From Candidatus Rokuibacteriota bacterium (GTDB lineage: Bacteria; JAUVQV01; DATDCY01), in NCBI GenBank assembly GCA_031406795.1, contig JANOHV010000224.1, forward strand, positions 1 through 51,564: DNA of 51,564 nucleotides, read 5' to 3'. The translations under genes and the position numbers were made by a program. Numbering within the stretch: the stretch's first letter is position 1; each line of letters opens with the position of its first letter. Positions 2,034-51,564 of this stretch are shown piece by piece. The notes under the pieces are model-generated. The model saw only the letters and a list, made by a program, of their open reading frames with translations, was not told where the DNA came from and made no database searches.

Positions 2034-3110
2034 ATGCGGCTGCTCGAGGCGCTGGGGTTGCCGAAGCCCCCGCGGCCGGTTTCCGGAGCGTGGCAGATCG
2101 ACATCACCACCCGCTGCGCGCTGGCCTGCCGGATGTGCATCCGCCAGGGGCTGCCCGGCTGGGAGTCCGCGGACATGTCGCGGGAGGCCTTTTCGCGACT
2201 GCTCCCGCTCTTCGAGGAGCGCGGCGTCGCGCAGGTTGTCCTGCAGGGCTGGGGGGAGCCGCTGCTGCACCCCGATCTCGTCTGGATGGTGGACGCGGTC
2301 AAGCAGCCTGCCGCAGTGGCGCGACGGAGCCGCAGCGCCCGGGCAGGGGCGCCGTCCGTCGGTTTCGTGACCGGAGCAACCGGACTGGATCCACAGCTCG
2401 CCAACGCGCTCGCGGACGCGGGCCTCGACTTCGCCGGAGTGTCGCTCGCCGGCGCCCGGGCCCAAACGCACGAGGCGATCCGCCGCGGCTCGAGCTTCGA
2501 CGCCGCGGTTGCGGGCGCCGCTCACCTCGCGGCGGCGCGGCGGCGCGACGGAGGCAGCCCCCGCGTGCACCTCGTCTACCTGCTGCTGCGGGACAACCTC
2601 GAGGAGGTCGTCGAGTTGCCGCGGCTGGCCCGGTCGATCGGCGCGGGAGCCGTCGTGCTGACCAACCTCGTCCACGTGTCGGATGCCTGGCAGGAGGCTC
2701 AGCGGGTCTTCGACGTGGCAGAGAGCCCGGCGTACGAGCGCCTGCTTGAGGCCGCCGAGCGCGAGGCCGCCGCCTGCGGCATCCCGCTGCTGCGGCCGCG
2801 GCTCGTCGCCGGGACGGTGCCCGTGTGCGCGGAGAACCCCCTCGCAAACCTCTACGTGACGCCGCGCGGCGAGGTGGCGCCGTGCGTCTATCTGAGCCCG
2901 CCGGTTCCTTCGCCGTTCCGGAGGGTCTTCCGCGGGACCCCTGCGTTCCAGAATGCCGTGCAGTTCGGCAATCTCTTCGATCGGCCGTTCGCCGGGATCT
3001 GGGAGGATCCGGAGTATGGGGCCTTCCGCGCGGCTTTCCGGCGACGCCGGGATAGCGGCACCGCGCCCCCCGCCCCCTGCCGAACCTGTCACAAGATCCT
3101 CGGCGTGTGA
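2034..3110 (+). CDS. Radical SAM/SPASM domain protein
   Basis: RBS GAGGAGG; CX3CX2C (CALACRMC); GWGEPLLHP; C-terminal cysteines CAENP, G.VAPCVY..FGNL, CRTCHK. Confidence 0.85.
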   Translation: MRLLEALGLPKPPRPVSGAWQIDITTRCALACRMCIRQGLPGWESADMSREAFSRLLPLFEERGVAQVVLQGWGEPLLHPDLVWMVDAVKQPAAVARRSRSARAGAPSVGFVTGATGLDPQLANALADAGLDFAGVSLAGARAQTHEAIRRGSSFDAAVAGAAHLAAARRRDGGSPRVHLVYLLLRDNLEEVVELPRLARSIGAGAVVLTNLVHVSDAWQEAQRVFDVAESPAYERLLEAAEREAAACGIPLLRPRLVAGTVPVCAENPLANLYVTPRGEVAPCVYLSPPVPSPFRRVFRGTPAFQNAVQFGNLFDRPFAGIWEDPEYGAFRAAFRRRRDSGTAPPAPCRTCHKILGV

Positions 3111-3120
3111 AATATGTCAC
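3107..3120. promoter_or_regulatory. GTGA-N6-TCAC palindromic operator (CRP/FNR- or Rex-like), copy 1
   Basis: GTGAAATATGTCAC, overlapping the radical SAM stop and upstream of the yeiH operon; reverse complement GTGACATATTTCAC matches the copies at 27325 and 38971. Confidence 0.5.
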
Positions 3121-3226
3121 CACCTTGAGGCCAGCATGATATATAGAGGGGGAAGGAACCATCGCCGCTCCGTGCCGTTTGCGGGTCGATGAGGGGGCAA
3201 CGTCCGCACAAGAAGAAGGAGGGGGC

Positions 3227-4762
3227 ATGGGAAAAGACAGCAAGCAAAGCTTCGGCTCGTCGCTCGTGAAGACCGAGGACTGGATGGCCGTCTGGCTCGG
3301 CTTCGTCGTCATCATCGCGATCCTCGTCGCCTACCAGTTCAAGCTCTTCGATCTGAACCAGCTCAACTCCAATTTCAAATGGACGACCGACAGCCAGGTC
3401 TCCTCGCGGGCGGCCAAGTGGAAAGCCTCGATCGAGCCGTTGGCGAAGGAGGCCGAAGCCAAGGGCGAGCAGGGCGCGGTGGTGCGGCTCACCGCACTGC
3501 GCGAGGCCCTGGACAAGGGCGACCGGGAACAGATCCGGAAGGCCGCGGGCAAGGTCACGAACCTCGGCGGCATCCCCGCGGAGATCGGCAAGGAGGTCGA
3601 GGACCGCTCCAAGGCCAGCCTCGACAAGGTCTTCACCGTGAAGAACATCTCCGCCGCCGTGAAGATCGGCGTCGCCTTCCTGCTGCTCTCGGCCGCGGGG
3701 ATGGCGGTGCTCGGGCGGCCGGTCGTCCCCTACGTCATCGGGTTTCCCTTCGTGTTCGCGCTGGCCTGGCTCGCGCGCTTCCTCGCCGGTAACGCGTTCC
3801 CGACCGACTACGGCATCGAGTACGTGATCTTCGCCCTCTTCGTCGGCCTGGCGATCAGCAACACCGTCGGCACCCCGAGGTTCATCAAGAACGCCGTCCA
3901 GACCGAGTACTACATCAAGACCGGGCTCGTGATCCTCGGCGCCGGGCTGCTCTTCTTCGAGATCGTCCAGGCCGGGGCGCTCGGCATCATCCAAGCGCTC
4001 CTCGTGATCTCCGTGATCTGGTACGCCTGCTTCTGGATCTGCCGCAAGCTCAAGGTCGACGACGAGTTCGCGGTCATGCTCTCCAGCGCCGTCTCGATCT
4101 GCGGGGTCTCGGCCGCGATCGCGACCTGCGGCGCCATCGACGGGGACAAGAAGAAGCTCTCCTACACGACCTCTCTGGTGCTGCTCTGCGCCGTCCCGAT
4201 GATGATCCTCATGCCCTGGGCGGTGAAAGCCTTCGGGGTCCCCGACCTCGTCGGCGGCGCCTGGCTCGGCGGCACGCTCGACACGAGCGGCTCCGTCGTG
4301 GCCGCCGGGGCGCTGATCAGCGAGGCGGCGATGAAGACCGGCGTCATCGTGAAGTTCTCGCAGAACGCCCTGATCGGCGTTGCCGCCTTCGTCCTTTCCA
4401 TCTGGTGGACCTTCCGGGCCGGGGCGGCCGCCGGTGAGCGGCCCACGGCGCGGGTGATCTGGGATCGCTTCCCGAAGTTCGTGATCGGGTTCATCGTCGC
4501 CTCGGTCCTTTTCTCCTTCGTCCTGAACCTCGACATGGTGAGCGACACCAAGGCCCGGCTCGCGGAGCTGCGGACCTGGTGGTTCGCGCTGGCCTTCGTG
4601 TCGATCGGCCTCGAGACCCGCTTCATGGACATGATCGAGATGGAGGGCGGGCGGCCGGCCGCGGCGTTCATCCTCGCCCAGGGTCTCAACGTGGTGTGGA
4701 CGCTGATCCTGGCCTACTGCCTCTTCGGCGGGATCTTCTTCGCGGCGCCCAACATCCAGTAG
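3227..4762 (+). CDS. YeiH/UPF0324 putative sulfate (sulfur-compound) exporter
   Basis: RBS AAGGAGGGGG; KTEDWMAVWLG; EYYIKTGLVILGA; SICGVSAAIA; GGTLDTSGSVVAAG; WDRFPKFVIGF; FVSIGLETRF; many transmembrane segments. Confidence 0.85.
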   Translation: MGKDSKQSFGSSLVKTEDWMAVWLGFVVIIAILVAYQFKLFDLNQLNSNFKWTTDSQVSSRAAKWKASIEPLAKEAEAKGEQGAVVRLTALREALDKGDREQIRKAAGKVTNLGGIPAEIGKEVEDRSKASLDKVFTVKNISAAVKIGVAFLLLSAAGMAVLGRPVVPYVIGFPFVFALAWLARFLAGNAFPTDYGIEYVIFALFVGLAISNTVGTPRFIKNAVQTEYYIKTGLVILGAGLLFFEIVQAGALGIIQALLVISVIWYACFWICRKLKVDDEFAVMLSSAVSICGVSAAIATCGAIDGDKKKLSYTTSLVLLCAVPMMILMPWAVKAFGVPDLVGGAWLGGTLDTSGSVVAAGALISEAAMKTGVIVKFSQNALIGVAAFVLSIWWTFRAGAAAGERPTARVIWDRFPKFVIGFIVASVLFSFVLNLDMVSDTKARLAELRTWWFALAFVSIGLETRFMDMIEMEGGRPAAAFILAQGLNVVWTLILAYCLFGGIFFAAPNIQ

Positions 4763-4816
4763 GAGCTGTTCTTGCAAGTCAACGACACAACGGCAGAGGA
4801 AAGGAGAACAACCACC

Positions 4817-5329
4817 ATGAAATTCAGCCTCTCGACGATTCTGGCCGCCGCGGCAGCGGCGACGATGTTCCTCGCGAGCGCGGCGAGCGCCGCCGACCCC
4901 AAGTATACGCCCGAGACGATGAAGGCGGTCGACGAGTGCAAGCTCCTCAAGCGCGACAAGAAGGAGATGCCCGCCGCCATCGAGGGGGTGAAGAACGTGA
5001 CCCCCGAGGACGTGAAGAAGATGCTCGACGCGAAGCAGAAGCTCGTTCTCCTGGACAACCGCCCGGTGGAGGAGTACGAGAAGGAGCACCTCCCCGGCGC
5101 GATCCGGCTTAACTCGGACGACCTGCTCGAGAACTCGAAGCTCGCCGCCGACGCCGGCCTCAAGGTCGATGACGTCATCGTCGTGTACTGCAACGGCGAG
5201 CTGTGCTGGCGCTCCCCCGCCGTGGCCTCGATGCTCAAGTGCCTCGGCTACAAAAACATCAACTGGTTCCGCAGCGGTCTCCCCGGCTGGATCAAGAAGG
5301 GGTACGAGACCGCCGAGGGCAAGAAGTAG
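4817..5329 (+). CDS. Secreted rhodanese-like protein
   Basis: RBS AAGGAG; signal peptide ending ASA-A; LLDNRP..EY...HLPGA; active-site loop YCNGELCWRS; GLPGW. Confidence 0.85.
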   Translation: MKFSLSTILAAAAAATMFLASAASAADPKYTPETMKAVDECKLLKRDKKEMPAAIEGVKNVTPEDVKKMLDAKQKLVLLDNRPVEEYEKEHLPGAIRLNSDDLLENSKLAADAGLKVDDVIVVYCNGELCWRSPAVASMLKCLGYKNINWFRSGLPGWIKKGYETAEGKK

Positions 5330-5416
5330 GCAGGCGCGTTTCCCAGAGAGGAGGGAGCTTTCGAACCAAACGATCCCGATGGCACTGGCTGTCCAACCAT
5401 CAAGGAGGCTGGGCTC

Positions 5417-6355
5417 ATGAGAAGAACCGTCCGCATGACATCCTGGTTGATTGCCGTCTTCCTCGCGACCGGCCTGGCGCCGCTCCCGGGGAGCGCGGCG
5501 CCCGCGGAGAAAGAGGCCGAATTCATCGGCAGCAAAGCTTGCCTCGAGTGCCACGACGAGATGGGTGAGACGTTCTCCGGCTCCCGGCATGCCAAGGCCT
5601 GGGCAGCCGACGCGAGATTCGGCGCCGCCGGCTGCGAGTCCTGTCATGGAGCAGGGGGCGAGCACCAGAAGGATCAGACGCGCGCCAGCATCCTGTCGTT
5701 CACGAGCGGAGCCAAGCGGGACGCGGAGCAGTTGAGCGGCAAGTGTCTGGCCTGTCACGCCGCCAGCACGGCAGTCGCCCTCTGGGACTCCGGACAACAC
5801 CGCAAGAACGGCATCGCCTGCTCGCAGTGCCACGCCATCCACCGCGGCGCCAGCCCGCTGGCCCGCCAGCCGGGCGTCTGCTACGGCTGCCATCGCGACG
5901 TGAAGTCCCAGGCGAACAAGCTCTCGCACCATCCCATCGGCGAAGGTAAACTCCCGTGCAGCAGTTGCCACAACGCCCACGGCTCGCTCACGGCGAAGAT
6001 GCTCAACGCCGAGACCGTCAACGAGCTCTGCTACAGCTGCCACGCCGACAAGCGCGGACCCTTCGTCTGGGAGCACTCCCCGGTCGAAGAAAACTGCCTG
6101 ACCTGCCACGCCGCGCACGGCAGCCGCCAGAGCAAACTGCTCGTGCAGAAACTCCCCAATCTCTGCCAGGAGTGTCACGACTGGTCGCGGCACCCGGGAA
6201 CCGCCTACGATGCCCGGACCGGCTTCGGCGGCCGCTCGCCGTCCAACCGCTTCTTCGCGCGATCCTGCCTGAATTGCCATGGGCAGATCCACGGCAGCTG
6301 GTCGCCGGTCAATCCCAACAACGGCGAAAACGCCGGCAATGTGCGGTTGCGATAG
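5417..6355 (+). CDS. DmsE/MtrA/PioA-family decaheme c-type cytochrome
   Basis: Signal peptide; ten CXXCH (CLECH, CESCH, CLACH, CSQCH, CYGCH, CSSCH, CYSCH, CLTCH, CQECH, CLNCH); KRGPFVWEHSPV; IHGS near the C-terminus. Confidence 0.92.
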   Translation: MRRTVRMTSWLIAVFLATGLAPLPGSAAPAEKEAEFIGSKACLECHDEMGETFSGSRHAKAWAADARFGAAGCESCHGAGGEHQKDQTRASILSFTSGAKRDAEQLSGKCLACHAASTAVALWDSGQHRKNGIACSQCHAIHRGASPLARQPGVCYGCHRDVKSQANKLSHHPIGEGKLPCSSCHNAHGSLTAKMLNAETVNELCYSCHADKRGPFVWEHSPVEENCLTCHAAHGSRQSKLLVQKLPNLCQECHDWSRHPGTAYDARTGFGGRSPSNRFFARSCLNCHGQIHGSWSPVNPNNGENAGNVRLR

Positions 6356-6364
6356 GAGGCCATC

Positions 6365-8548
6365 ATGAAGACACGGATCGCATCTGCATCTCTGGCAGTG
6401 CTGCTGCTTATCGGCCCCGGCGCGGCCCGCGCAGCCGGTGAACAGGAGTTCGGCGGGACGGTCACGCTGGTGCTGCGCGGCGTCAGCGGCGAGAACGAGA
6501 GCGCCAAGTCGCAGGAGTACGGGGATCTGCAGGACGGCGTCACGGCCTCGGCGGGGCTGCGCTACGGCAAAGGCGCCTACTACCTCGAGATCGACGGCCG
6601 GAACTTCGGGCTGGACGACCAGTCCCTGCGCCTGCGCGGCGGCAGGTACGGCTCCTTCACCTACACCGCCTTCTACGACGAAACGCCCCACAACTATTCC
6701 TTCGGGGCCAGGACATTCTTCACGGGCATCGGCACCGCCGAACTGGACTATTTCGCGATCTCCCGGCCAAAGGACCAGGATGCGAGGCTGACTCCGACGG
6801 TCAGCAGGGACAAGGATCTCTGGCACCGTTTCGACTACGCCATTCAGCGCCAGGAGCACGGTTCGGCGCTCGAAGTGGCGCTGAAGAGCCCCTTCTACTT
6901 CAAACTCGGCGCGAAGCAGGAGAATCGTACGGGCATCAAGCCGCTGGGCGCCGACAGCGGGGTCTTCGCGGACATCATCGGGTCGCAGACCTCCTCCTTC
7001 GGGAACGTGGTGGAGATACCCGAGCCGGTCGACTACCAGACCAATACGGCGACGTTCGAAACCGGGTACCGCACGCGCCCGGTCGTCCTGACGCTGACGG
7101 GGCTGTGGAGTTCCTTCGACAACGACAACCGCACCCTGGACTGGCGCAACCCCTTCGTGACCACGGAACGGGTGATCGAGACCAACTACCTGCCCCCTGA
7201 GAACGACTACTGGAAGGTCGGCGCGCAGGGCGTCTTCAGGATGCCGTCGCGCTCGACGCTGGCGCTGCGCGCGAGCTACGCCCACCTGACGAACGATCTC
7301 GTTCTCGGCACGACGGTGACGGACTCCGTAGCCCCCGACCCCACCAACGGGATCTCCACCGGGACCTCGCCGAGATATTTCAACAGGACGCTCGGAGTCA
7401 ATCGCAGCCGTTTCAAGGGCGACGTCGGCACCACCACCGTCAAGGTCGCCTACGACACCAGCGCGCTGAAGCTGGTCACGCTCGAGATCCTCTACGACTA
7501 CACCGGGAGGAACAACGAATCGAGCACTGTCGAATACACCAACCTCGCCACGGGCCAGACCGCCGAGAACGAGCTGTTCGAATACCGCAGGCACCACGGG
7601 GGCCTCAGCCTCGGGATGAAGCTTCCCGGGAAGACCGCGTTGAACCTCGGCTACGACTACGTCAATGTCGACCGGACGGGGCGCGAGGACGTGGAGAACA
7701 CCGCGGATCACGAGGTCTCCCTGCGGCTGAGCAACTCGGCCACCGATCTGCTGACCACCCGGGTCAAGTATCAGCACGTCTTTCGCAGTTCGGAATTCGG
7801 CCACGAGGCGGCGCAGTTCGCGCCGACCGCCCCCGAATCGATCGAACTCTACGTGCGGCGGTTCGACGTCGCCGACAAGTACCGCGACGTGGCCGGGATC
7901 GGCTTCGAGCTGGCCCCGACGGAGAGCCTGGACCTGGGCCTGGAGTACACCTTCACGCGGGACGACTTCGACTCGACCCTGCTCGGGCTGCAGCAGGAAG
8001 ACCGCCATCAGGTCTACCTCGAGCTGTCCTACAAGCTGCCGCGCGATGTCGCCTTCGGGGTCGGTGCGGGATATGAGCGCGTCGTCTCCGATCAGCAGCA
8101 GCGGCAGTTCAACCCGGGCGGCAGCACGAATCCGGCCGCCCCCGTCACGGCGACGGCCTTCAACTGGTCGGAGAGCGTGAGGAGCAACAACTGGTCCTGC
8201 GGGCTTTCGGCGAAATTCCCGATCGTGAAGGACCGCTGGGACCTGGCCGCGGCCTGGAATTACCAGCAGTCGGACGGGGAGGGGCTCTTCTCCGCGACGG
8301 GGAGAACATTCGAGAACATCGCCGAATCCGACGACTACACCAAGAACACGGTGGAGATCAAGGCGATCTTCCACGTGGCCAAGCAGCTCGAGTTGATCCT
8401 CGGCTATGTGTTCGAGAAGCTCGATTACAGCGACGACCGGTGGAAGCAGTACGCGTACGCGACCAACAACAGCTTCCTGAGCGGCGCGTACGCGGACGAG
8501 GACTACGACATCAACGTCGGCTACGCCAAGATGAAGTACAGCTTCTAA
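6365..8548 (+). CDS. MtrB/PioB-family outer-membrane beta-barrel (decaheme-associated porin)
   Basis: 9 bp after the decaheme gene with RBS AGGAGG; 727 aa; SAKSQEYGDL, PEPVDYQT, LPPENDY, RRFDVADKYRD; terminal YSF. Confidence 0.88.
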   Translation: MKTRIASASLAVLLLIGPGAARAAGEQEFGGTVTLVLRGVSGENESAKSQEYGDLQDGVTASAGLRYGKGAYYLEIDGRNFGLDDQSLRLRGGRYGSFTYTAFYDETPHNYSFGARTFFTGIGTAELDYFAISRPKDQDARLTPTVSRDKDLWHRFDYAIQRQEHGSALEVALKSPFYFKLGAKQENRTGIKPLGADSGVFADIIGSQTSSFGNVVEIPEPVDYQTNTATFETGYRTRPVVLTLTGLWSSFDNDNRTLDWRNPFVTTERVIETNYLPPENDYWKVGAQGVFRMPSRSTLALRASYAHLTNDLVLGTTVTDSVAPDPTNGISTGTSPRYFNRTLGVNRSRFKGDVGTTTVKVAYDTSALKLVTLEILYDYTGRNNESSTVEYTNLATGQTAENELFEYRRHHGGLSLGMKLPGKTALNLGYDYVNVDRTGREDVENTADHEVSLRLSNSATDLLTTRVKYQHVFRSSEFGHEAAQFAPTAPESIELYVRRFDVADKYRDVAGIGFELAPTESLDLGLEYTFTRDDFDSTLLGLQQEDRHQVYLELSYKLPRDVAFGVGAGYERVVSDQQQRQFNPGGSTNPAAPVTATAFNWSESVRSNNWSCGLSAKFPIVKDRWDLAAAWNYQQSDGEGLFSATGRTFENIAESDDYTKNTVEIKAIFHVAKQLELILGYVFEKLDYSDDRWKQYAYATNNSFLSGAYADEDYDINVGYAKMKYSF

Positions 8549-13341: not shown

Positions 13342-13394
13342 AGACGCAAGGTAGGGAAACTCGCGGGTACGGTCAATGGCGGAAAGCGGGTATA

Positions 13395-14057: not shown

Positions 14058-14156
14058 GCTCCCCCCCGCAATCGTTCCTGGACGGTACCCGGCCCGTACG
14101 GGGCGGCACCGATCATCACGCTGAAGCCGCCGCTCGTCAAGCCGGATCTTGATGCC

Positions 14157-42287: not shown

Positions 42288-42311
42288 GGGCATGGCGCCA
42301 AGGAAGGCTTT

Positions 42312-42572: not shown

Positions 42573-44267
42573 ATGAAAAGCATGGCCAGAGGATTGGTAG
42601 CGGTAGTACTGTCGTTCTTGCTGTTTCCGGGTAGCGCTGCGGCAGCCCTGCTGCTGTCCGAAAGCTTCGAGACTGCCGTGCCCCCTGCCGGCTGGATCAA
42701 GCATAGTCCCGACGGCGGCACCGGCTGGAATCGTCAAACCAACGGCACGACGCCGATCCCCGGGTTTGAGAATCTCGTGGGTACGGTGACCACCCCCGCC
42801 GGCGGCGGAAACGGCGTCGCCTTTGCCACCTATCTGACCGGCGGAACCGTGCCGGACATCAACGGAGCCTTCCCCAACGACCAGTGGCTGGTCACTCCGG
42901 GAGTAGCCATAACGACGGCGGGAACGAATCTTACTTTCTGGGTCAGAAAATTCACCGATCTCATCGACAACCTGGAAGTCAAGATCTCCACGACCACCAA
43001 CGCACTGCCCAGCTTCACGACGAGCCTCGCCTTGTACGCGTTCGGCAATGTGCCGGAAGACTGGAACCAGAAAACGATCAGTCTCGACGCGTTTGTCGGC
43101 CAGACGGTCTTCATCGCCTTCAGAGAGTTCGTCGCCGACAATTTCTTCGACGGCGATGCGCTGTTTCTCGATCTGGTGACGATCGCCAGCCCGCTGCTGG
43201 ACCAGACGCTCACGGTGACCGGGCACGCCCCGGCGCGCGCGATGATCGGCGACATCTTCGCGGTGGCGGCGACGGCGACCTCGGGGCTGCCGGTTGCGAT
43301 CACGGCTACGGGTGCGTGCAGCGGCAGCGGCGCGGGTACCGCGCTGGTCACGATGACCGCTACCAACGGCAACTGTCTGGTCGCGTTCAACCAGGCCGGC
43401 GACACCAACTTTGGCGCCGCGCTGCCGGTGATGGAGCAAGTCCGCGCATTCGCGGCGAAGAACGATTTCGACGGGGACGGCCGCTCCGACCTCGGCGTTT
43501 ACAATCCGACCGGCGGCAACTGGTACCTGTTCAAGAGCGCGGAGGGATTCTCGGAGAGCCTGTTCGGCTACGCCGGAACAGTCCCCGTTCCGGGTGACTT
43601 CGACGGTGACGGCCGGGATGACATCGGGGTCTACGACGATCAGGGCGGCAAGTGGTTCCTGTCGAAGAGCCTGGAAGGGCACCAGGAGACGGACTTCGGC
43701 TACGCCGGGACGATCCCGGTGGTCGGGGACTTCGACGGCGACGGTCGGGATGACTTCGGCGTCTACGATGATGCCGGCGGCAGCTGGAACCTGTTCAAGA
43801 GCGCCGCAGGGTTCTTCCACACGACATTCGGCTTTGACGGAACGATCCCGGTCGTGGGAGACTTCGACGGTGACGGCCGGGATGACTTCGGCGTCTACTA
43901 TCCGACCGGCGGCAACTGGTATCTGTTCAAGAGCACGGAAGGGTTCTTCCAGACGGCGTTCGGCTACGCCGGCACGATCCCGGTCGTGGGAGACTTCGAC
44001 GGCGACGGCCGGGATGACATTGGCGTCTACTATCCGCCCGGCGGTAACTGGTACCAGTTCAAGAGCTCGGAGGGTTTCTCGCAGACGACGTTCGGCTACG
44101 CGGGGACCGAACCGGTGGTCGGAGACTTCGACGGCGACGGTCGGGATGACATCGGCGTGTACTATCCCCCCGGCGGCAACTGGTACCTGTTCAAGAGCGC
44201 GGAAGGTTTTTCGCAGACGACGTTCGGGTACGCGGGGACCATGCCGGTTGGCGGCACGCTGCGCTAA
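42573..44267 (+). CDS. Secreted cleaved-adhesin (choice-of-anchor J-like) domain protein with C-terminal FG-GAP/VCBS-like repeats
   Basis: RBS-like AAGGGGGG; signal peptide; LLSESFE..PPAGW, NDQWLVTP, ISLDAFVGQTVFIAFR; six DFDGDGRxD repeats; ends GGTLR. Confidence 0.78.
   Translation: MKSMARGLVAVVLSFLLFPGSAAAALLLSESFETAVPPAGWIKHSPDGGTGWNRQTNGTTPIPGFENLVGTVTTPAGGGNGVAFATYLTGGTVPDINGAFPNDQWLVTPGVAITTAGTNLTFWVRKFTDLIDNLEVKISTTTNALPSFTTSLALYAFGNVPEDWNQKTISLDAFVGQTVFIAFREFVADNFFDGDALFLDLVTIASPLLDQTLTVTGHAPARAMIGDIFAVAATATSGLPVAITATGACSGSGAGTALVTMTATNGNCLVAFNQAGDTNFGAALPVMEQVRAFAAKNDFDGDGRSDLGVYNPTGGNWYLFKSAEGFSESLFGYAGTVPVPGDFDGDGRDDIGVYDDQGGKWFLSKSLEGHQETDFGYAGTIPVVGDFDGDGRDDFGVYDDAGGSWNLFKSAAGFFHTTFGFDGTIPVVGDFDGDGRDDFGVYYPTGGNWYLFKSTEGFFQTAFGYAGTIPVVGDFDGDGRDDIGVYYPPGGNWYQFKSSEGFSQTTFGYAGTEPVVGDFDGDGRDDIGVYYPPGGNWYLFKSAEGFSQTTFGYAGTMPVGGTLR
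43461..44267 (+). repeat. FG-GAP-like cassette A: six ~132-bp (44-aa) repeats
   Basis: Unit GDFDGDGRDDIGVYYPPGGNWYLFKSxEGFxQTxFGYAGTxPVV; period 132 bp (e.g. 43593 to 43725). Confidence 0.9.
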
Positions 44268-44338
44268 CATAATCGTCGTCACATGCTGAAAGGATTACCA
44301 GACGTGGCTGCATTTAGTCGAACTGGAGGGGGAGAGAG

Positions 44339-45745
44339 ATGGAAGGGATAAAGAGGCGGGACTTTCTCAAGTACGGCTTGAGCGGCGCGGCGGCACTCGT
44401 CGTGGGCACGAAGATGCCCTGGCTGATGAAGAACGAGGCCTATGCGGCGGTCCATACCCAGACCCTCAATTTTCACATCACCGATGCCGTGAAAGACATG
44501 GTGACGCACAACGCCATCAACTCCGCGCAATGCTATTTCTGGATCTTCAAGGAAGACACTTTCCCGGCCGAGTGTCCCGGGCCCAACATCTTCACCACGC
44601 AGGGGGATGTCGTCCGCATCGTCATCACCAACGACCTGGACGCGCCGCATTCGTTCTTCATCCCGGGCATGTTCGACAGCGGCCCCATCGCCCCGGGCGC
44701 CAAGGTCACGAAGTTCTTCACTGCGACCAAGTCCGGGTCCTTCCTGTATCACGACAACCTGAACGAGCCGGTGAACCGGGCGATGGGGCTGCATGGCGCC
44801 TTCATCGTCATGCCCCGGGCGGCTGCGGCCGGGCACAAGTTCACGCCGTACGATAATCCGACGCCGATGATCCAGAAACTGTTCGACGAACTCGGCACCG
44901 CGGCCCACTGGCCCGGCCTGCCCTGGGAGCAGGGCGATCCGGCAACCGACACGCAGGCATTCCGGCAGTATGTCTGGGTGACGCACGAAGCCAGCCCCGT
45001 CCTGTTCGCAGAGGTGGGCAACGCCGCGCCCGGAACGGGCTTCCGCATCCCGGCGAACTTCGTGAACGCCATCTTCAACGACCCCTATGCCGACACCTTC
45101 AATACCGGGGTCTTCAACCGCAAGCCCCACTTCTTCACGATCAACGGACAATCCGGCCACTTCGCGCACAACAACCCGTTCATCTGCCCGAACCTCCGCG
45201 TGGGCGAACCGTGCGTCATCCGGGTCCTGGGCGCCGGGGTTAACACCCATTCCATGCACATCCACGCCAACCACGTCTACGTTCTCTCGCTGGACAACCA
45301 GCTGTCCAACGACCTCTGGTGGGTGGACACCATGACCAACAGCCCGCTGCGCGGCTTCGACTGGCTGGTGCCCTACATGCGGCCGCCCGACATCCCCAAT
45401 GTCCGCGGGATCGGCCTGGCGGATCCCGGGCTGGTAACGCTCGCCGGCGGCACGACCTGGCCGCCGAATGAAGAGCTGAACACGTTCTTCCCGCCGATCG
45501 GCACGCTGGCCGACCCGCTTAACCCGCTCTCCCCGGATATCTCGGTGCAGCTCTCCCCCCTCTGTTTTCCGATGCACTCCCACACCGAGGCGTCCCAGAC
45601 CTCCCAGGGCGGCAGCTACAACCTCGGCTTGATTTCCGGGATGAACTTTATCGGTGACCGCAACACCCCGGGCGGCGTCACGACCTTCCCGCTGATGCAC
45701 ACGGACAATCACGGTCCCGATAAGACGGGACCGGCGGCCGGCTAG
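44339..45745 (+). CDS. Tat-exported two-cupredoxin-domain multicopper oxidase-like protein
   Basis: KRRDFLK twin-arginine signal; PGPNI..QGD; FLYHD; FFTING; HSMHIHANH; PMHSH. Confidence 0.8.
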   Translation: MEGIKRRDFLKYGLSGAAALVVGTKMPWLMKNEAYAAVHTQTLNFHITDAVKDMVTHNAINSAQCYFWIFKEDTFPAECPGPNIFTTQGDVVRIVITNDLDAPHSFFIPGMFDSGPIAPGAKVTKFFTATKSGSFLYHDNLNEPVNRAMGLHGAFIVMPRAAAAGHKFTPYDNPTPMIQKLFDELGTAAHWPGLPWEQGDPATDTQAFRQYVWVTHEASPVLFAEVGNAAPGTGFRIPANFVNAIFNDPYADTFNTGVFNRKPHFFTINGQSGHFAHNNPFICPNLRVGEPCVIRVLGAGVNTHSMHIHANHVYVLSLDNQLSNDLWWVDTMTNSPLRGFDWLVPYMRPPDIPNVRGIGLADPGLVTLAGGTTWPPNEELNTFFPPIGTLADPLNPLSPDISVQLSPLCFPMHSHTEASQTSQGGSYNLGLISGMNFIGDRNTPGGVTTFPLMHTDNHGPDKTGPAAG

Positions 45746-45780
45746 CGTCAAGCAGCGCAAACAGAAGAAGGAGAGAGATC

Positions 45781-47079
45781 ATGTCGGTCGCAATCCCAGC
45801 GCATCACATATTTCGCAAGTCGGTGGTCGGCGACGAGAATGAGTGGGTCAAGATGTTCGACCCGCCCACGGAGAGCCCGGCGACCCCGGAGAATCTGTCC
45901 CCGACGAACCCCGTGCCGGCGTTCGTCGCCGCCACCGTTCCCGGGGCCACGAATGCGGTACCCAATACGGTGGAAGTCGGCCTGATGCACGGGCGGCGCA
46001 TCACGATGTGGGACGGGAAACAGGTGATGTTCTTTCTGATCGACAATGGGGATGTTCCCGCTACCGCGGCGGGCACGTTTCCGGGCCCGACCCTCCGGGT
46101 GCCCCGGGGAGTGGTCTTCCACGCCGACACCAGGGGCGCCGGGCCGCCCCCGCACACCATCCACTGGCATGGCATCGAGCCGACCCCCATGAACGACGGG
46201 GTCGGGCACTGTTCGATGGAGATCGGGCAGTACACCTACCAGTTTCAGCCCAACTTCATCGGCAGCTATTTCTACCACTGTCACCGCAACACCGTGCAGC
46301 ATTTCGAATTCGGCCTCTACGGTTTTCTGATCATCGAGCCGCCCGACGCGTATGCCCAGCAGAATCCGGCCCTCCCGAACTACGCCGGCGGCTATCCCCG
46401 GCGGACCGCGGCCAACCTCGCCAAGTTTCCGCAGTTCCCCGGTTTCGTCGCCGGCGCGCTGACCAGCGGCGACCCCCACGCGATGACCGTTCCGTACGAC
46501 ACGGAGGCTCTCTGGGTCATCGATGACCGGGACTCCACCTGGAGCGACAACATGAGCAATGCCCGGGACACCATGCCGGCGCACGGCACCCAGCCCGGTA
46601 TCAACGACGTATTCACCAAAGGGGATCTGCACGATTTCAACGCCGATTATTTCTTTGTCACCGGCGTCCCCTTCCCGGCTCCGGTGGGGAGCACGATTTC
46701 CTGCGCGCCAAACGTGGTCGTTCCCGCCGAACTGAACAGCGGCGTTGTCGGGATGCAAGTCTCGATCAATTCCCAGGTCAACAAGACCATCCTGGTCCGG
46801 TGCCTCTGTGCGTCGTACGTCAGCCTCAGGGTGAGCTTCCCCGTCGACATCACGATCATCGCCTGGGACGGCCGGGCCCTCGGGGTGCCGCCTTTCGGCA
46901 ATTACAGCGAACCCTATGTGGTGAAGGCCGGAACGCAGATCGCGCTCAGTACGGCCCGGCGCTTTGATGCGCTGATCCGATCGGCAACGCCGGTGAACTC
47001 CTTCGCCAATGTCGAGTTCATCAACAACCGGGGCGGCCAGACGCTGTTGAACGGCCGGATTCCCATTGTGATTGCTTAG
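45781..47079 (+). CDS. Multicopper oxidase-like protein without a signal peptide
   Basis: FPGPTLRV; PHTIHWHG; NDGVG; YFYHCHRNTVQHFEFGLYG; second domain lacks His clusters. Confidence 0.8.
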   Translation: MSVAIPAHHIFRKSVVGDENEWVKMFDPPTESPATPENLSPTNPVPAFVAATVPGATNAVPNTVEVGLMHGRRITMWDGKQVMFFLIDNGDVPATAAGTFPGPTLRVPRGVVFHADTRGAGPPPHTIHWHGIEPTPMNDGVGHCSMEIGQYTYQFQPNFIGSYFYHCHRNTVQHFEFGLYGFLIIEPPDAYAQQNPALPNYAGGYPRRTAANLAKFPQFPGFVAGALTSGDPHAMTVPYDTEALWVIDDRDSTWSDNMSNARDTMPAHGTQPGINDVFTKGDLHDFNADYFFVTGVPFPAPVGSTISCAPNVVVPAELNSGVVGMQVSINSQVNKTILVRCLCASYVSLRVSFPVDITIIAWDGRALGVPPFGNYSEPYVVKAGTQIALSTARRFDALIRSATPVNSFANVEFINNRGGQTLLNGRIPIVIA

Positions 47080-47110
47080 CAGAAATGCCAAAGAAGGCGG
47101 GGGGGTTGCC

Positions 47111-49726
47111 ATGTGTATAGAGAGCTTCTCAAGAAGAGCGATGCTCGTTTCTGCTCTCCTGTTCGTCGTGGGTTTCCCGTTGCTCTTTCCGGGACCTGCG
47201 GCGGCGGGGATCTCGTGGGATAAAAGAGCACGGCTGCCGCAGGGGAACCATCTGTCGGCAACGGCCGACGGCGCCGGCCTGATCGTTGCGGTGGGGGACG
47301 GGGGGACCATTCAGACCTCTCCGGATGGGATCGCCTGGACCCTGCGGAATTCGGGTGTTCTCGTGAACCTAACCGGACTGGCCTTCGCCAACGGCCTCTT
47401 CGTTGCGACCGGGAGTAACGGCACGATTCTGACCTCTCCGGATGGGGTGATTTGGACTGCCCGAACATCAGGGGTCTGGGTCGAACTCTTTGACGTCGCT
47501 TTCGGCAACGGCGTCTTCGTCGCGGTGGGAGGACACGGAACCGCACTGACCTCCACGGACGGGATCACCTGGGTCCCCCAGAATACCTTTCTCCTGAATG
47601 ACCTCGTCGCCGTGGCCTTCGGCAATGGCAGATTCGTCTCCGTGGGAATCGTCGGCAACATTGTGACCTCTTTCGACGGGGTGGTCTGGAGTTCGCAGAC
47701 CGTCGGGGTCCCGAACAACGAATTCATCCCGAACGATCTGACGGGAATCACGTTCGGGAATGGTACGTTTGTCGCGGTCGGGAGTCTGGGACTCATCCTG
47801 ACCTCCACGGACGCGGTGATCTGGACCGTGAGAGCCACGCTGAGCGCATTCGATCTCTCCGATGTGGCCTTCGGCAACAACACCTTCGTGGCCGGGGGAG
47901 GGTTCGGCACGCTGCTTTCGTCGACGAATGGAACAAACTGGACTCCCCGGGCATCCGGCACGACGAATGTGATCAACGCCGTCGACTTCGTTGCCGCCGG
48001 ATTCGTTGCCGTGGGGGATCTGGGCACGACCCTGACCTCGCCGACCGGAGTGGCGTGGTCCCTGCGCTCCTCGGGAAGCCCGGAGTGGTTCTTCGGAGTC
48101 GCGGACGGCGTCGTTCTTGGCAACGAAGTCCTGGTGGGAGTCGGGAGCGGCGGTATGATCGCCACCTCAACCGATGGGGTGACCTGGACCGCGCAGACCT
48201 CGGGGACCACCGAGGTTCTCTTCGGCGTCACTTCAGGAGTTGTTGCGGGGAACACTCTCTTCGTGGCCGTCGGGAGTGCCGGCACGGTCCTGACCTCTTC
48301 GAACGGGGTGAACTGGACCCCGCGAGCGTCAGGAACCGCGCTGGATCTGCTGGGAGTCGCCTTCGGCAACAACACCTTCGTTGCGGTGGGGCTGTTCGGC
48401 GCTATCTCGACCTCGGCCGATGGGACGGCTTGGGCTGCGCAGGTGCTGGGGAGTGACTTCCACGCAGTCACGTTCGGCAACGGCATCTTCGTCGCGGTAG
48501 GAAATGCCGGCGCGATCTCGACCTCGCCCACCGGCGCGACCTGGACGCTCGTCAACTCGGGGACCGGGCAGGATCTCTTCGGCGTCGCGCATGGCAGCGG
48601 CGACTTCGTGGCGGTCGGAGCGGGAGGCACCATTCTGACCTCGCCCGCCGGCGTGATCTGGACGCCTCGGGCATCGGGGACGGTGCACGGCCTCTATGGC
48701 ATCGCGCTGGGCAGCCACGAATTCCTGGCCGTCGGCGGATTCGGGACGGTTCTGACTTCCGTGAACGGCATCAGTTGGGCTCCCGAGGATTTCGCCAAGG
48801 CTGCTTCCACCCAATTGTTGGGCATCACCTTCGCGGGAGCCAGCTTCGTCACCGTGGGTAGTGCGGGCACGATCATGCAATCCGCGGTCCCGGCGTTGAT
48901 CGCAGCCCTGAACCAGCGGAACGATTTCGACGGCGATGGCCGCTCGGATATCGGCGTCTACTATCCGCCAGGCGGCAACTGGTACATCTTCAACAGCTCC
49001 ACCGGGTTCTTCCAGACGACGTTCGGGTATGAAGGGACGCTGCCGATCACCGGCAACTTCGACGCCGACGCGATGAGCGACATCGGCGCCTACTATCCCC
49101 CCGGCGGCAACTGGTACATGTTCAAGAGCGCGGATGGTTTCATGCAGACAACGTTCGGCTACGAGGGGACGATCCCGGTGGTCGGGGACTTCGACGCCGA
49201 CGGCATCAGCGACATCGGCGCCTACTATCCGCCCGGCGGCAACTGGTATTTCTTCAAGAGCACGGAAGGGTTCTCGCAGACGACCTTCGGCTACGCCGGG
49301 ACGATCCCGCTGGTCGGGGATTTCGACGGCGACGGCAGGAGCGACATCGCCGCCTACTATCCGCCCGGCGGCAACTGGTACATGTTCAAGAGCACGGAAG
49401 GGTTCTTCCAGACGGCCTTCGGCTACGACGGGACGATCCCGGTGGTCGGGGACTTCGACGGCGATGGGCGCGATGACATCGGCGTCTACTATCCGCCCGG
49501 CGGCAACTGGTACCTGTTCAAGAGCACGGAAGGGTTCTTCCAGACGACTTTCGGCTATGCGGGGACGGAACCGGTGGTCGGGGACTTCGATGGGGACGCG
49601 CGGGATGACATCGCCGTCTACTACCCCGCCGGTGGCAACTGGTACCAGTTCAAGAGCACGGAAGGGTTCTTCCAGACGACCTTCGGGTTCGAAGGGACGA
49701 TCCCGATCGGCGGCACGCTGCGGTAG
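47111..49726 (+). CDS. Secreted protein with ~14 BNR/YCF48-like propeller repeats and a C-terminal FG-GAP-like cassette
   Basis: Signal peptide (contains SRRAML); 14 repeats of L..VAFGN..FVAVG..GTILTS.DG..W; six DFDxDG repeats; ends GGTLR. Confidence 0.82.
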   Translation: MCIESFSRRAMLVSALLFVVGFPLLFPGPAAAGISWDKRARLPQGNHLSATADGAGLIVAVGDGGTIQTSPDGIAWTLRNSGVLVNLTGLAFANGLFVATGSNGTILTSPDGVIWTARTSGVWVELFDVAFGNGVFVAVGGHGTALTSTDGITWVPQNTFLLNDLVAVAFGNGRFVSVGIVGNIVTSFDGVVWSSQTVGVPNNEFIPNDLTGITFGNGTFVAVGSLGLILTSTDAVIWTVRATLSAFDLSDVAFGNNTFVAGGGFGTLLSSTNGTNWTPRASGTTNVINAVDFVAAGFVAVGDLGTTLTSPTGVAWSLRSSGSPEWFFGVADGVVLGNEVLVGVGSGGMIATSTDGVTWTAQTSGTTEVLFGVTSGVVAGNTLFVAVGSAGTVLTSSNGVNWTPRASGTALDLLGVAFGNNTFVAVGLFGAISTSADGTAWAAQVLGSDFHAVTFGNGIFVAVGNAGAISTSPTGATWTLVNSGTGQDLFGVAHGSGDFVAVGAGGTILTSPAGVIWTPRASGTVHGLYGIALGSHEFLAVGGFGTVLTSVNGISWAPEDFAKAASTQLLGITFAGASFVTVGSAGTIMQSAVPALIAALNQRNDFDGDGRSDIGVYYPPGGNWYIFNSSTGFFQTTFGYEGTLPITGNFDADAMSDIGAYYPPGGNWYMFKSADGFMQTTFGYEGTIPVVGDFDADGISDIGAYYPPGGNWYFFKSTEGFSQTTFGYAGTIPLVGDFDGDGRSDIAAYYPPGGNWYMFKSTEGFFQTAFGYDGTIPVVGDFDGDGRDDIGVYYPPGGNWYLFKSTEGFFQTTFGYAGTEPVVGDFDGDARDDIAVYYPAGGNWYQFKSTEGFFQTTFGFEGTIPIGGTLR
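48920..49726 (+). repeat. FG-GAP-like cassette B: six ~132-bp repeats
   Basis: Same unit and same total length (807 bp including the stop) as cassette A. Confidence 0.9.
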
Positions 49727-49753
49727 CACGCGCCATCGAGAATTTCATGGAAC

Positions 49754-49790
49754 TCTCGCCCCCGCGGCGCCCACGCCGGCGGGGGCGAGA
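49754..49790 (+). terminator. GC-rich stem-loop after the gene ending at 49726
   Basis: Stem TCTCGCCCCCGC / GCGGGGGCGAGA; no clear U-tract. Confidence 0.45.
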
Positions 49791-49933
49791 CTCGTGCCTG
49801 TCGCTTTGAACTCGACGGCGATCGGGCCGAGTCGGAGGGCCTGGTGAACCCGGCCGAATGAAGACAACGGTCAAGCTGAACGTCAGATCATGCAACGCTA
49901 CTGGGAATCTGGCATTGGTTGGAGGAGAGAGAC

Positions 49934-51564
49934 ATGAACGCGTCGAAAGCAGTTGTTGTAGCGGAGAGCCAGCGGAGGCCAAGGAGTACGGGAAGGGCAA
50001 TCCCCACGTTCCTGGCGGTCCTGGCGGTTGCGCTGGGTGGACTGTTCCCGTCCGGAAGCGCACAGGCGGCTCTGAATGCGGTCAGCCCCCTGAGGAATTT
50101 CGGGAACTTCCCGCTCTGGTATCGTGATCTCGCCGCCGGCGGGAGTCAGGTGCAATTGTGTCTGGGACTGAACCCGGATGGTACCGGGCTGCCTGACCCC
50201 CTCTGCGTGTTGCCTCCCCTGGCCCCGGGAAATATCAGTTTTCCGGCCAACTTCCCCGACGAGGCATTCTATTGGATTGCGGAAGCCGAGCATGCCGCCA
50301 TCGGTACCGGCGGCGGCCGTGCCCGGCTTCGTTTCGCGCTGGAGGCCGCATTTGGCACGGGAACCCCCGTGGCCGGCCAACAGATGACTTTCTTGCGGAT
50401 CAATTTGTTTCCGATAGCAGGACTTGCCCCGAGCAGCACCTATACGGTGTTGCATCCGTATGGCACGTTTGATTTTACGACTGAAGCAGATGGCAGAACG
50501 ACTATCACCGGTGGCCAGGCATTCAGGGCGGAAGACGGAGCTATTCCCATCGGTATCGTCGCGACCGCCTTTGAAATACTGCTTCCCGCGACGAATACCA
50601 ATATCTCCAGTCTGTTGAAGTGGGACGTGGGGGCGCCGGCAGGATATCTGGGAGACGCACTTACCCCGCATCTGGTAACGGGGGGTCCGCTGAGCAACAC
50701 GTTTACGATTGCGGCAGCAGCAGGTCCCGCATTGACCGCGGATATCGATCCGACGCTCGCCGGGGTGCAGACTTCGATCACGACGGGTCTCTTCGTGGTT
50801 TCGGGGAAGCTCTTCGCGCCGACACTTACCCAGGTGACGCCCGTCCCGACACCTACCAACGTCACCACGCCGAATTACAGCTTTACGACGAACGACGTCG
50901 GCACGATCACCTACGGCGGTGACTGCACCAGCCCGACGACGGCTGCGGTCCTGGGGACCAACACGGTGACTTTCAATCCTCTGGCGGATGGAGTTCATGC
51001 CAACTGCACGATTACGGTCACCAATGCTGCAGGAAATGCCAGCAACATCTTGAGCGTGGCACCCTTCACGATCGACACGGTGCCTCCCGTCGCGACGCAG
51101 GTGACGGCGGTCCCGACCCCGACCGGAGACAGCACGCCGACCTACACCTTCAACACGAACGAAGCCGGAACCATCGTGATCGGGGGAGGCTGCGCGAGTG
51201 CGACGACGGCTGCAACGGCAGGCAATAACACAATTGCCTTCCGCGCTCTGAAAGCCGGGCTGCACACCGGCTGCCTGATCACCGTGGTCGATCTGGCGAC
51301 GAACGTCGGCAACACGCTGAATGTGCCGGCCTTCACGGTCAGAAACGTGAAGAACGATTTCGACGGCGACGTTCGCTCGGACATCGGCTGCTACTTCCCG
51401 CCCGGGGGCGACTGGTTCGAGTTCAGGAGCGCGGAGGGATTCATCCAGACGAAGTTCGGGTTTGCCGGGACGCTGCCGATCACCGGCGACTTCGACGCCG
51501 ACGGCAAGGCCGACATCGGCGCCTACAACCCGCCCGGCGGCAACTGGTACCTCTTCAAGAGCAC
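49934..51564 (+). CDS. Secreted protein (3' partial): third paralogue of the FPxWYxD domain + Ig-like domains + FG-GAP-like cassette
   Basis: Not in the ORF track (no stop inside the window). RBS GGAGGAG; manual translation MNASKAVV...SAQA-ALNAVSP..GNFPLWYRD..VQLCL..FPDEAFYW..LEAAF..QMTFLR..HPYG; KNDFDGDVRSDIG begins in the same frame near 51350. Confidence 0.82.
   Translation, partial: MNASKAVVVAESQRRPRSTGRAIPTFLAVLAVALGGLFPSGSAQAALNAVSPLRNFGNFPLWYRDLAAGGSQVQLCLGLNPDGTGLPDPLCVLPPLAPGNISFPANFPDEAFYWIAEAEHAAIGTGGGRARLRFALEAAFGTGTPVAGQQMTFLRINLFPIAGLAPSSTYTVLHPYGTFDFTTEADGRTTITGGQAFRAEDGAIPIGIVATAFEILLPATNTNISSLLKWDVGAPAGYLGDALTPHLVTGGPLSNTFTIAAAAGPALTADIDPTLAGVQTSITTGLFVVSGKLFAPTLTQVTPVPTPTNVTTPNYSFTTNDVGTITYGGDCTSPTTAAVLGTNTVTFNPLADGVHANCTITVTNAAGNASNILSVAPFTIDTVPPVATQVTAVPTPTGDSTPTYTFNTNEAGTIVIGGGCASATTAATAGNNTIAFRALKAGLHTGCLITVVDLATNVGNTLNVPAFTVRNVKNDFDGDVRSDIGCYFPPGGDWFEFRSAEGFIQTKFGFAGTLPITGDFDADGKADIGAYNPPGGNWYLFKS

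Follow-up and report, generated by a model that had tools for sequence, protein, structure and literature searches.

We analyzed a 51,564-nt stretch of DNA (the window) from a Candidatus Rokuibacteriota bacterium (assembly GCA_031406795.1, contig JANOHV010000224.1), which carries the gene for an MnxG-type multicopper oxidase (MCO) along with a second oxidase gene pair, a gene for a cytochrome-porin fusion protein and an MtrAB-type gene pair. Comparisons with related loci indicated that this region is probably a neighborhood of separately transcribed, separately inherited modules around a Pseudomonas-type mnx system. The most likely working picture is that of a sigma-54-controlled Mn oxidase regulon, made up of the mnxG cassette and a two-subunit oxidase with its surface proteins, beside an inserted fusion pair and an unrelated mtrAB string. 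Every component listed in an earlier note on this DNA was confirmed to be in the window. That note had also proposed a single integrated system that couples Mn/Fe oxidation to electron uptake. This proposal was not supported because, when 31 window proteins were run by tblastn against 14 related mnxG loci, only the five-gene mnxG cassette recurred, joined in six loci by a sigma-54 regulator; the other modules were unlinked in relatives within the 10-kb flanks of these loci.

The 14 loci were taken from one MnxG scan of GTDB genomes. Genes in the window, whose G+C content is about 67%, were chosen among overlapping high-GC open reading frames (ORFs) by third-position G+C, and domain scans covered 32 candidate proteins against Pfam and 25 against NCBIfam.

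The mnxG cassette and its probable regulation

The features of the mnx block are as follows.
21307-23421, plus strand: PAS-GAF histidine kinase
23418-24773, plus strand: sigma-54-dependent response regulator (Pfam Response_reg, Sigma54_activat at 2.6e-67 and HTH_8)
27527-27541, plus strand: sigma-54 type promoter TGGCAT-N5-GTGC, 108 nt before mnxG
27649-32529, plus strand: MnxG-type multicopper oxidase, 1626 aa, with a signal peptide and a full copper ligand set (NF041487; 9bxa_A)
32587-34554, plus strand: YVTN beta-propeller (YVTN repeat model)
34551-35180, plus strand: SCO1/SenC
35131-35820, plus strand: SCO1/SenC
35817-37436, plus strand: fusion of cytochrome c and Peripla_BP_6 (type-I periplasmic binding protein)
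37594-38865, plus strand: FtsX-like permease with four hydrophobic segments (weak PF02687 match)

The earlier description of a 1626-aa multicopper oxidase operon of MnxG type was borne out by the family searches. The MnxG protein scored 1454.1 bits against the NCBIfam model NF041487, far above noise, and its best match among solved structures was the Bacillus MnxG (9bxa_A, E 1.7e-99, four stretches). The copper ligands were located at HxxHxH (residues 412-417), HCHxxxHxxxxM (466-477), HIH (777-779) and HDH (874-876), and these motifs, together with HGH, were invariant when the protein was aligned with nine homologs from related loci. Judged by its sequence, the window MnxG is a clear homolog and not an equivalog by the NF041487 rule.

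The SCO chaperones that had been noted correspond to two SCO1/SenC genes within the mnxG operon. Both proteins keep the CxxxC motif and the distal His (C86/C90/H169 and C103/C107/H186), and CxxxC was retained in all eight SCO1 homologs checked, which came from four loci. The next gene product joins a single CXXCH to Peripla_BP_6, and its heme motif was kept in 10 of 10 cassettes. After these five comes the FtsX-like gene (PF02687, 21.4 bits with a cut-off of 25.5), which takes sixth place in the operon only in the window and in the closest related locus; the two proteins are 75% identical. A G+C-rich inverted repeat, read by eye at 32530-32610 between mnxG and the propeller gene, was not flagged by the terminator scan; it could be an attenuator or an mRNA stabilizer.

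The first five genes are identical in order to those of the Pseudomonas putida GB-1 operon, given in Table 4 of PMC11409713 as mnxG, YVTN propeller, SCO1, SCO1 and a substrate-binding protein with a cytochrome c domain. Both systems also have a sigma-54-dependent response regulator with a kinase, and sigma-54 sites precede their mnxG operon and a second oxidase operon alike. They differ in that the sixth gene is SurA-like in P. putida and FtsX-like in the window, that P. putida has two kinases (MnxS1/MnxS2) and the window mnx block one, and that the second oxidase is McoA there and a predicted two-subunit Tat (twin-arginine translocation) enzyme here. In addition, the window protein is shorter (1626 aa, compared with a model length of 1894 for NF041487) and scores under the equivalog cut-off, the regulator lies adjacent, with a 2.9-kb insertion before mnxG, and the window host is related to a groundwater Deltaproteobacteria metagenome-assembled genome (MAG). 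The likeness to the Bacillus MnxEFG complex (9bxa) lies in the MnxG homology (E 1.7e-99); the window has no MnxE or MnxF genes, and the partners are instead SCO1, the propeller and the cytochrome/binding protein. According to PMC13689576, the SCO1 genes of P. putida may be copper chaperones, and Mn oxidation in pseudomonads needs cytochrome c maturation (ccm) genes, with the role of the cytochromes described there as uninvestigated. The conserved cytochrome c domain of the binding-protein fusion may be the reason for that ccm requirement.

The 14 related loci (designated L001 to L014) comprised the groundwater Deltaproteobacteria MAG (L001, 80% MnxG identity), 12 Acidobacteriota MAGs of the Blastocatellia and Pyrinomonadaceae that carry the mnxG gene or cassette (L002-L013, 53-56%) and Rubrivivax sp. 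A210 (L014, 40%). The five-gene cassette was complete in all 10 loci that reached far enough (L001, L002, L004, L006, L008, L009 and L011-L014); the remaining four end inside or just after mnxG or the propeller gene. A sigma-54 regulator was present upstream of mnxG, directly abutting it, in six of the 14 (L002, L007, L009, L010, L011 and L012). Sites resembling the sigma-54 consensus at 9 or more of 11 scored positions were found within 700 nt upstream of mnxG in six of the 11 loci scanned (L002, L005 and L009-L012), five of which also have the regulator, and were not found before mnxG in L001, L004, L007, L008 and L014. About 0.06 such sites per locus (800 nt) would be expected by chance at the window rate. 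The Rubrivivax strain, a cultured Mn(II) oxidizer, has the cassette with a 2206-aa MnxG homolog (L014, 10001-21606).

In the window itself, the kinase and response regulator genes overlap by 4 nt and the regulator has NtrC-family NCBIfam matches. From these family assignments, the two genes (21307-24773) are a candidate MnxS/MnxR-like pair. The mnxG promoter site, TGGCATGGCTTGTGC, is of the -24/-12 type and agrees with the consensus at 9 of 11 scored positions, 108 nt upstream of the gene. The site at 39118-39132, before the operon that begins with the secreted protein gene Ig1014, is the only perfect sigma-54 match in the window (0.08 expected; 8 of 100 shuffles have one). Eight sites scoring at least 9/11 were found in the whole window on both strands, and there was no window-wide enrichment of the consensus with two mismatches (31 sites, 46 expected). 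As for MnxR in P. putida, PMC13689576 describes it as a putative sigma-54-dependent activator, places sigma-54 sites before mnxG and mcoA, and reports that deletion of mnxR lowers transcription of both genes.

The earlier note had also listed shared promoter motifs. What stood of this were the two sigma-54 -24/-12 sites (27527-27541 and 39118-39132), and what fell was the sharing of 8-mers. Three comparisons of the regulatory regions gave 2 shared 8-mers versus 3.7 expected, 6 versus 2.9 (reached by 18 of 200 shuffles) and 6 versus 3.8 (44 of 200). The element GAAATGAC was present in all three regulatory regions (4 in the window, 1.1 expected), and TGTCTCA occurred six times, all at these regions, with 4.0 expected window-wide. 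The sigma-54 elements are the only credible signals common to the regulatory regions.

The second oxidase gene pair and the surface proteins

The operon behind the perfect sigma-54 site and the secreted protein genes on the minus strand are listed here.
39118-39132, plus strand: perfect sigma-54 consensus TGGCAC-N5-TTGC, 111 nt before Ig1014
39243-42287, plus strand: secreted Ig/cadherin-like protein Ig1014
42312-44267, plus strand: ORF for a choice-of-anchor-J and FG-GAP protein, likely start 42573 with a signal peptide
44339-45745, plus strand: oxidase subunit alpha, 468 aa, Tat signal
45781-47079, plus strand: oxidase subunit beta, 432 aa, no signal peptide
47072-49726, plus strand: FG-GAP propeller protein
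49919 to window end (51562, open), plus strand: FG-GAP propeller protein
16889-19771, minus strand: secreted protein Ig960
19812-21149, minus strand: secreted protein unk445

The second oxidase-like gene pair reported previously, here called alpha and beta, lies in a string of Ig1014, FG-GAP, alpha, beta and FG-GAP genes. The first cupredoxin domain of beta has HTIHWHG (residues 125-131) and HCH-x5-H-x4-L (166-179), giving a type-1 (T1) site and four trinuclear histidines; its last domain is ligand-free and it has no signal peptide. Four trinuclear histidines are also present in alpha, in HSMHIH (304-309) and MHSH (412-415) of its last domain, with no T1 cysteine. The first cupredoxin domain of alpha contains single non-motif histidines only and no copper ligands, and the protein has a Tat signal.

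Family searches identified 960 relatives of beta and 677 of alpha (sequence clusters, both counts being lower bounds), and the 120 listed for each were examined. All 120 of these beta relatives have HxxHxHG and HCH-x5-H-x4-[LMF] and none has a Tat motif. Among the alpha relatives, HxxHxH was found in 118 of the 120, [MLF]HxH in all, HCH in none and a Tat motif in 109. The family profiles were collinear when aligned with each other by hhalign (probability 91.6, E 8e-7, 251 columns), and the ligand motifs of each family face ligand-free positions in the other. The matches listed, all under generic names, came from Nitrospirota, Thermodesulfovibrionales, Deltaproteobacteria, Neobacillus/Bacillus, Chloroflexi, Phycisphaerae, Treponemataceae, Riflebacteria and Ca. 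Methanoperedens.

Alpha and beta also appear to travel together. The longest contigs were of the same size in the alpha and beta lists in 18 cases (by eye), some being 2949-6807 nt, and GenBank accessions were consecutive in all four alpha-beta pairs that had them. The distance matrices of 19 pairs were correlated (r 0.81, reached by 0 of 2000 permutations), which is expected of neighbors and is no proof of binding. Together, these data indicated that the pair is, at the level of sequence, a set of widespread adjacent co-diverging paralogs with reciprocally lost copper ligands. The reciprocal ligands and the single Tat signal point to a putative obligate two-subunit oxidase. The split multicopper oxidase of the earlier note is thus truly split, and the reciprocal ligands across 120 and 120 relatives are stronger evidence for this than its reader had.

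The best solved relatives of both chains are the two-domain oxidases 3gdc, 2zwn and 3g5w and copper nitrite reductases. The domain-1 pattern HxxHxHG...HCH matches that of 3gdc in the alignment. In the two-domain oxidases, however, both trinuclear halves (eight His) are in one chain, whereas here they are on two paralogous chains, each of which has one ligand-free domain and an insert of about 100 residues. We take oxidases of the 3gdc/2zwn/3g5w type to be homotrimers, with the label 'type C'.

No description of such a two-chain multicopper oxidase was found in the literature searched, the coverage of which lies outside subscription journals; the only related term met was the fungal 'heterodimeric laccase', with a small non-oxidase subunit. 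The pair seems to be an oxidase class without a studied member. A possible lead came from PMC9040806, which states that all Ca. Manganitrophaceae encode "two novel MCOs". Its Table S6 lists a Cu-oxidase_3-only oxidase cluster in all eight genomes, with one to three copies. In the same table, the oxidase of strain Mn1 is at the 95th expression percentile and lies beside a CarboxypepD_reg protein and a CopD-family protein, with a sigma-54 regulator two tags off, and their expression is up in the same two samples. Several beta relatives, from several lineages, are fused to CarboxypepD_reg, and Nitrospirota MAGs carry the pair. The likeness of the window pair to these oxidases is one of gene description. 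We regard it as conceivable, though short of an even chance, that the pair represents an unstudied obligate two-subunit MCO class, which would have arisen by duplication of a two-domain oxidase and reciprocal site loss, with Tat co-export and sigma-54 control beside Mn genes, and which is perhaps the same as the Ca. Manganitrophus enzymes.

The large secreted proteins reported earlier were identified as Ig/FG-GAP proteins at 16889-21149, 39243-44267 and 47072-51562. Unk445 and Ig960 have a common N-terminal domain of about 430 aa (448 aligned positions, 48% identical), which recurs in the open-ended last gene (49919-) at 35-39% identity. With 2017 representatives at E<=1e-3, the domain matched nothing in Pfam or the PDB. 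A C-terminal module is common to the three FG-GAP proteins (about 68% identity), and a strong terminator follows Ig960 on the minus strand (16850-16817). An unk445-type domain adjoins the mnxG operon both in the window and in L001, where it is downstream of mnxG (22650-24848). With respect to base composition, the G+C content of 38001-50000, which includes the operon with the oxidase pair, is 0.62-0.67 compared with 0.66-0.71 for the mnxG operon; the lower value is compatible with separate acquisition.

These surface proteins bear on an alternative in which the copper oxidases are not for Mn and serve instead in copper/iron detoxification or in matrix cross-linking (phenol/protein oxidation), within a sigma-54 biofilm/surface program that includes the Ig/FG-GAP proteins. 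In favor of this alternative, many secreted Ig, cadherin-like and FG-GAP proteins are specified by the two sigma-54 operons and by the minus-strand operon, and in L001 genes for polysaccharide export stand farther upstream of mnxG. The pair is present in many anaerobe-affiliated lineages, such as Thermodesulfovibrionales, Syntrophobacteraceae and Methanoperedens, and sequence cannot reveal the substrate. However, the operon order is identical to that of the P. putida Mn oxidase operon, which is genetically proven, and there is the homology to Bacillus MnxG. We therefore consider a non-Mn role for these oxidases unlikely and favor the Mn oxidase regulon.

The cytochrome-porin fusion and the MtrAB string

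The remaining features of the window are as follows.
24887-25339, plus strand: 150-aa probable lipoprotein with a PSCyt1-like domain (sequence; Rubrivivax alignment)
25339-26508, plus strand: 389-aa monoheme cytochrome c-porin fusion
26626-27282, minus strand: CHRD-domain protein, divergent from mnxG (PF07452, 6.6e-33)
3179-4762, plus strand: YeiH-family membrane protein (PF03601, 1e-45)
4772-5329, plus strand: rhodanese with a signal peptide (PF00581, 4e-16)
5417-6355, plus strand: periplasmic decaheme cytochrome of the MtrA/DmsE family (10 CXXCH; TIGR03508; 6r2q_A)
6365-8548, plus strand: MtrB/PioB-type outer-membrane porin (PF11854)
8838-16790, both strands: five cytoplasmic two-component genes (Pfam; three kinases scanned, without transmembrane segments)

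The fusion protein (389 aa) starts with a signal peptide, carries its one CXXCH at residue 39 and ends in FF. In these respects it resembles the Cyc2 proteins of Acidithiobacillus and Mariprofundus PV-1, which likewise have a signal peptide, one CXXCH just after it and a porin-type barrel, and its length exceeds the 365 residues expected of Cyc2. Keffer et al. (PMC8406198) define Cyc2 as a protein of 365 residues or more with a signal peptide, one CXXCH and an OprO/P-like porin of 16 strands. They add the motif AXPXFAR[Q/K][T/Y] five residues before the heme site, called unique to Cyc2, and PXL four residues after it.

To place the protein, the best 120 of 142 relatives were considered, 106 of which were aligned. 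CXXCH lies within the first 90 residues in 116 of the 120, and none of the 120 is named Cyc2. In the 106 aligned sequences there is always a single CXXCH followed by GGG, and E28, P29, C39, C42, H43, G48-G50 and R52 are invariant, so that the family differs from Cyc2 in having its own signature, E-P...C-x-x-C-H...G-G-G-x-R. PXFAR[QK][TY] was found in 0 of the 106 and PXL within 12 residues of CXXCH in 0 of the 106; A-x-P-x-hydrophobic-[AS] was found in 86, with a spacing of 3 rather than the 5 of Cyc2. With regard to the barrel, Pfam assigned Porin_4 to 11 of the 106 relatives and Porin_O_P to 7 but no porin family to the window protein itself, a crude amphipathicity scan of the fusion gave about 15 segments, and a comparison of the family profile with the PDB yielded nothing but a marginal porin match (E 0.088). 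An Atlas homolog of the fusion falls only in clusters named 'putative cytochrome c domain-containing protein', with Porin_O_P in 20% of the members of one cluster. Because the two defining motifs tested fail in the 106 aligned sequences, the protein is, by the published signature motifs, not a Cyc2 member; it is predicted to be a real monoheme cytochrome-porin of Cyc2-like architecture. The 'Cyc2-like fusion' of the earlier note therefore holds for the architecture and not for family membership.

A further difference from Cyc2 is that the fusion is translationally coupled to a PSCyt1-like CX4CH lipoprotein, the stop codon of which overlaps the fusion start (TGATG). Residues 49-148 of the lipoprotein align with the PSCyt1 domain of a Rubrivivax protein, with C-x4-CH in place of CXXCH, a heme motif with a two-residue insertion. 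A sigma-70-like -35/-10 was read by eye before the pair, where the promoter scan reported none (-10 rule unmet), and a weak terminator-like site follows the fusion gene (26516-26530). The neighboring CHRD protein has a lipobox after M53 and a probable lipoprotein start at 27126. By comparison with the Acidobacteriota loci, in which the regulator directly abuts mnxG, the fusion pair plus the CHRD gene resemble an insertion of 2.9 kb. The cytochrome-porin gene was in 0 of the 14 loci, eight of which, L001 included, have at least 6.7 kb upstream. The most plausible reading of the fusion and lipoprotein pair is that it was inserted independently between the regulator and mnxG. We also looked for co-location of the fusion and oxidase families by matching contig sizes; this gave three coincidences, two with contigs too short and the third from different sources, and was rejected.

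The decaheme/porin pair without MtrC that had been described was located at 5417-6355 and 6365-8548, in a yeiH-rhodanese-mtrA-mtrB string with gaps of 9, 87 and 9 nt. The decaheme protein has 10 CXXCH, scored 257.4 bits against TIGR03508 (cut-off 192.2) and matched the MtrA chain 6r2q_A (E 5.1e-59). The porin scored 262.6 bits against PF11854 and 225.7 against TIGR03509, just under the cut-off of 240.05, and had no sequence match in the PDB. In all six frames of the window, the decaheme gene was the only ORF of at least 80 aa with more than one CXXCH, and no MtrC was found. A candidate sigma-54 site before mtrA (5380-5394) was discarded because the GC of its -12 element is missing and it overlies the ribosome-binding site, ending 22 nt short of the start codon.

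A decaheme MtrA homolog beside an MtrB/PioB porin, without MtrC, is the arrangement of MtoAB and PioAB. The window pair is distinguished from MtoAB, PioAB and MtrCAB by the genes for a YeiH-family membrane protein and a periplasmic rhodanese in front of it, by the lack of an MtoD, CymA or PioC partner within the window, and by a decaheme protein of 312 aa without a long N-terminal extension of the PioA type. Between the string and the kinase that heads the mnx block, 19 kb away, lie seven genes in both orientations, five for regulators and two for secreted proteins. Neither MtrA, MtrB, CHRD nor either oxidase half was found in any of the 14 loci (10-kb flanks). For the yeiH-rhodanese-mtrAB string, too, an independent module is the best reading.

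The integrated proposal regards all of these parts as one surface system in which Mn(II)/Fe(II) oxidation is coupled via the fusion and MtrAB to electron uptake for energy. It draws on all parts lying within 48 kb, on the fusion pair lying between the regulator and mnxG, and on the c-type cytochrome domain that always accompanies the mnxG cassette. It is also in keeping with the ccm requirement of pseudomonad Mn oxidation (cytochrome role uninvestigated according to PMC13689576) and with the proposal in PMC9040806 that Ca. Manganitrophus oxidizes Mn(II) by means of Cyc2 and porin-cytochrome complexes. However, the fusion gene is absent from all 14 related loci, has promoter-like and terminator-like sites of its own and fails both Cyc2 motifs. 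MtrAB is in a different gene string 19 kb away, and the oxidase pair is inherited as an independent two-gene unit across many phyla.

Multicopper oxidases hand substrate electrons through the trinuclear cluster to O2. Because they reduce O2 directly in this way, no inward conduit is needed. Electron-uptake coupling is unsupported, and we consider the single-system proposal quite unlikely.

A different role for MtrAB and the fusion pair would be electron export, i.e., reduction of metal oxides or other acceptors, with the host cycling Mn by making oxides aerobically and respiring them without O2. The window MtrA is homologous to that of the reducing Shewanella MtrCAB complex, and its NCBIfam family is named after DmsE, a reductive conduit. 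Against this, neither MtrC nor an extracellular terminal reductase is encoded in the window, sequence does not tell the direction, and within 10 kb the relatives show no linkage of these genes to mnxG; we consider this alternative very improbable. The substrate and electron-flow direction of MtrAB and the fusion pair are not readable from sequence, and the window has no partner genes of MtrAB that would point to a direction.

Several other observations were made outside these modules. Upstream of the yeiH-rhodanese-mtrAB string, positions 1-3110 encode a TolB-like PD40 propeller, a DUF1554-like protein and a radical SAM/SPASM maturase, the best match of which is the Geobacter 'metalloenzyme maturase' subfamily, below cut-off. 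The sensor gene at 10907-12106 (response-regulator/HisKA_3/HATPase_c) is broken by an in-frame TAG (11693-11695) that separates its HisKA_3 part from its ATPase part; this could be a nonsense mutation, a sequencing error or read-through. Rfam and tRNA scans of the window found nothing.

Proposed mechanism and significance

Several points weigh against the reading of the region as separate modules around an Mn oxidase regulon. The window MnxG does not reach the NF041487 equivalog cut-off of 3100 (1454.1 bits), and Mn(II) oxidation by this MnxG clade is a prediction. The sole cultured carrier found, Rubrivivax sp. A210 (40%), is credited with a different oxidase, as its genome paper (PMC8218464) counts five oxidase homologs and favors a MofA-like one. 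The regulator is MnxR-like at the level of its family, and 8-mers common to the three regulatory regions are not above shuffles. L001, the closest relative, has a LuxR-type regulator and a PAS/HisKA_3 kinase at mnxG and no sigma-54 site of 9 or more. The fusion pair sits exactly between the regulator and mnxG, a position that could be functional, and any linkage of MtrAB and the oxidase pair to mnxG in relatives lies beyond the 10-kb flanks. Finally, the binding of the two oxidase halves is something that we infer.

Based on the families identified, we propose that the cytoplasmic PAS-GAF kinase phosphorylates the sigma-54-dependent response regulator, which would then activate the sigma-54 promoter of mnxG. 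MnxG would be exported by its signal peptide and its copper loading helped by the two SCO1 proteins, as proposed for P. putida. By family knowledge, it would oxidize Mn(II) at the type-1 copper and pass electrons via the trinuclear cluster to O2, a route that would require neither energy conservation nor an inward electron conduit. The second, perfect sigma-54 promoter would head the operon of the surface Ig/FG-GAP proteins and the two-subunit oxidase. Alpha and beta most likely assemble in the cytoplasm and leave together via Tat, with beta riding on the Tat signal of alpha and the trinuclear site formed between the first domain of beta and the last domain of alpha. The two-subunit oxidase would then be a second regulator-controlled oxidase, as McoA accompanies MnxG under MnxR in P. 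putida.

The failed Cyc2 signature guards against over-calling iron oxidation from architecture alone. With regard to the two-subunit oxidase, no characterized member of the family was found in the literature searched, and its sequence clusters, at least 960 and at least 677, range over Bacteria and include an archaeon. The enzyme would suit a clean test of Tat co-export and of a trinuclear copper site split between chains. If the pair is indeed an unstudied two-subunit class, possibly the Manganitrophus MCO, it would be a candidate new metal oxidase. The mnxG cassette, including its conserved cytochrome c domain, is intact in a groundwater Deltaproteobacteria-type lineage, and 12 Acidobacteriota MAGs carry the mnxG gene or cassette; across these lineages a sigma-54 regulator often accompanies it. 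These findings widen the likely enzymatic Mn oxidizers of soil and groundwater beyond the model pseudomonads.

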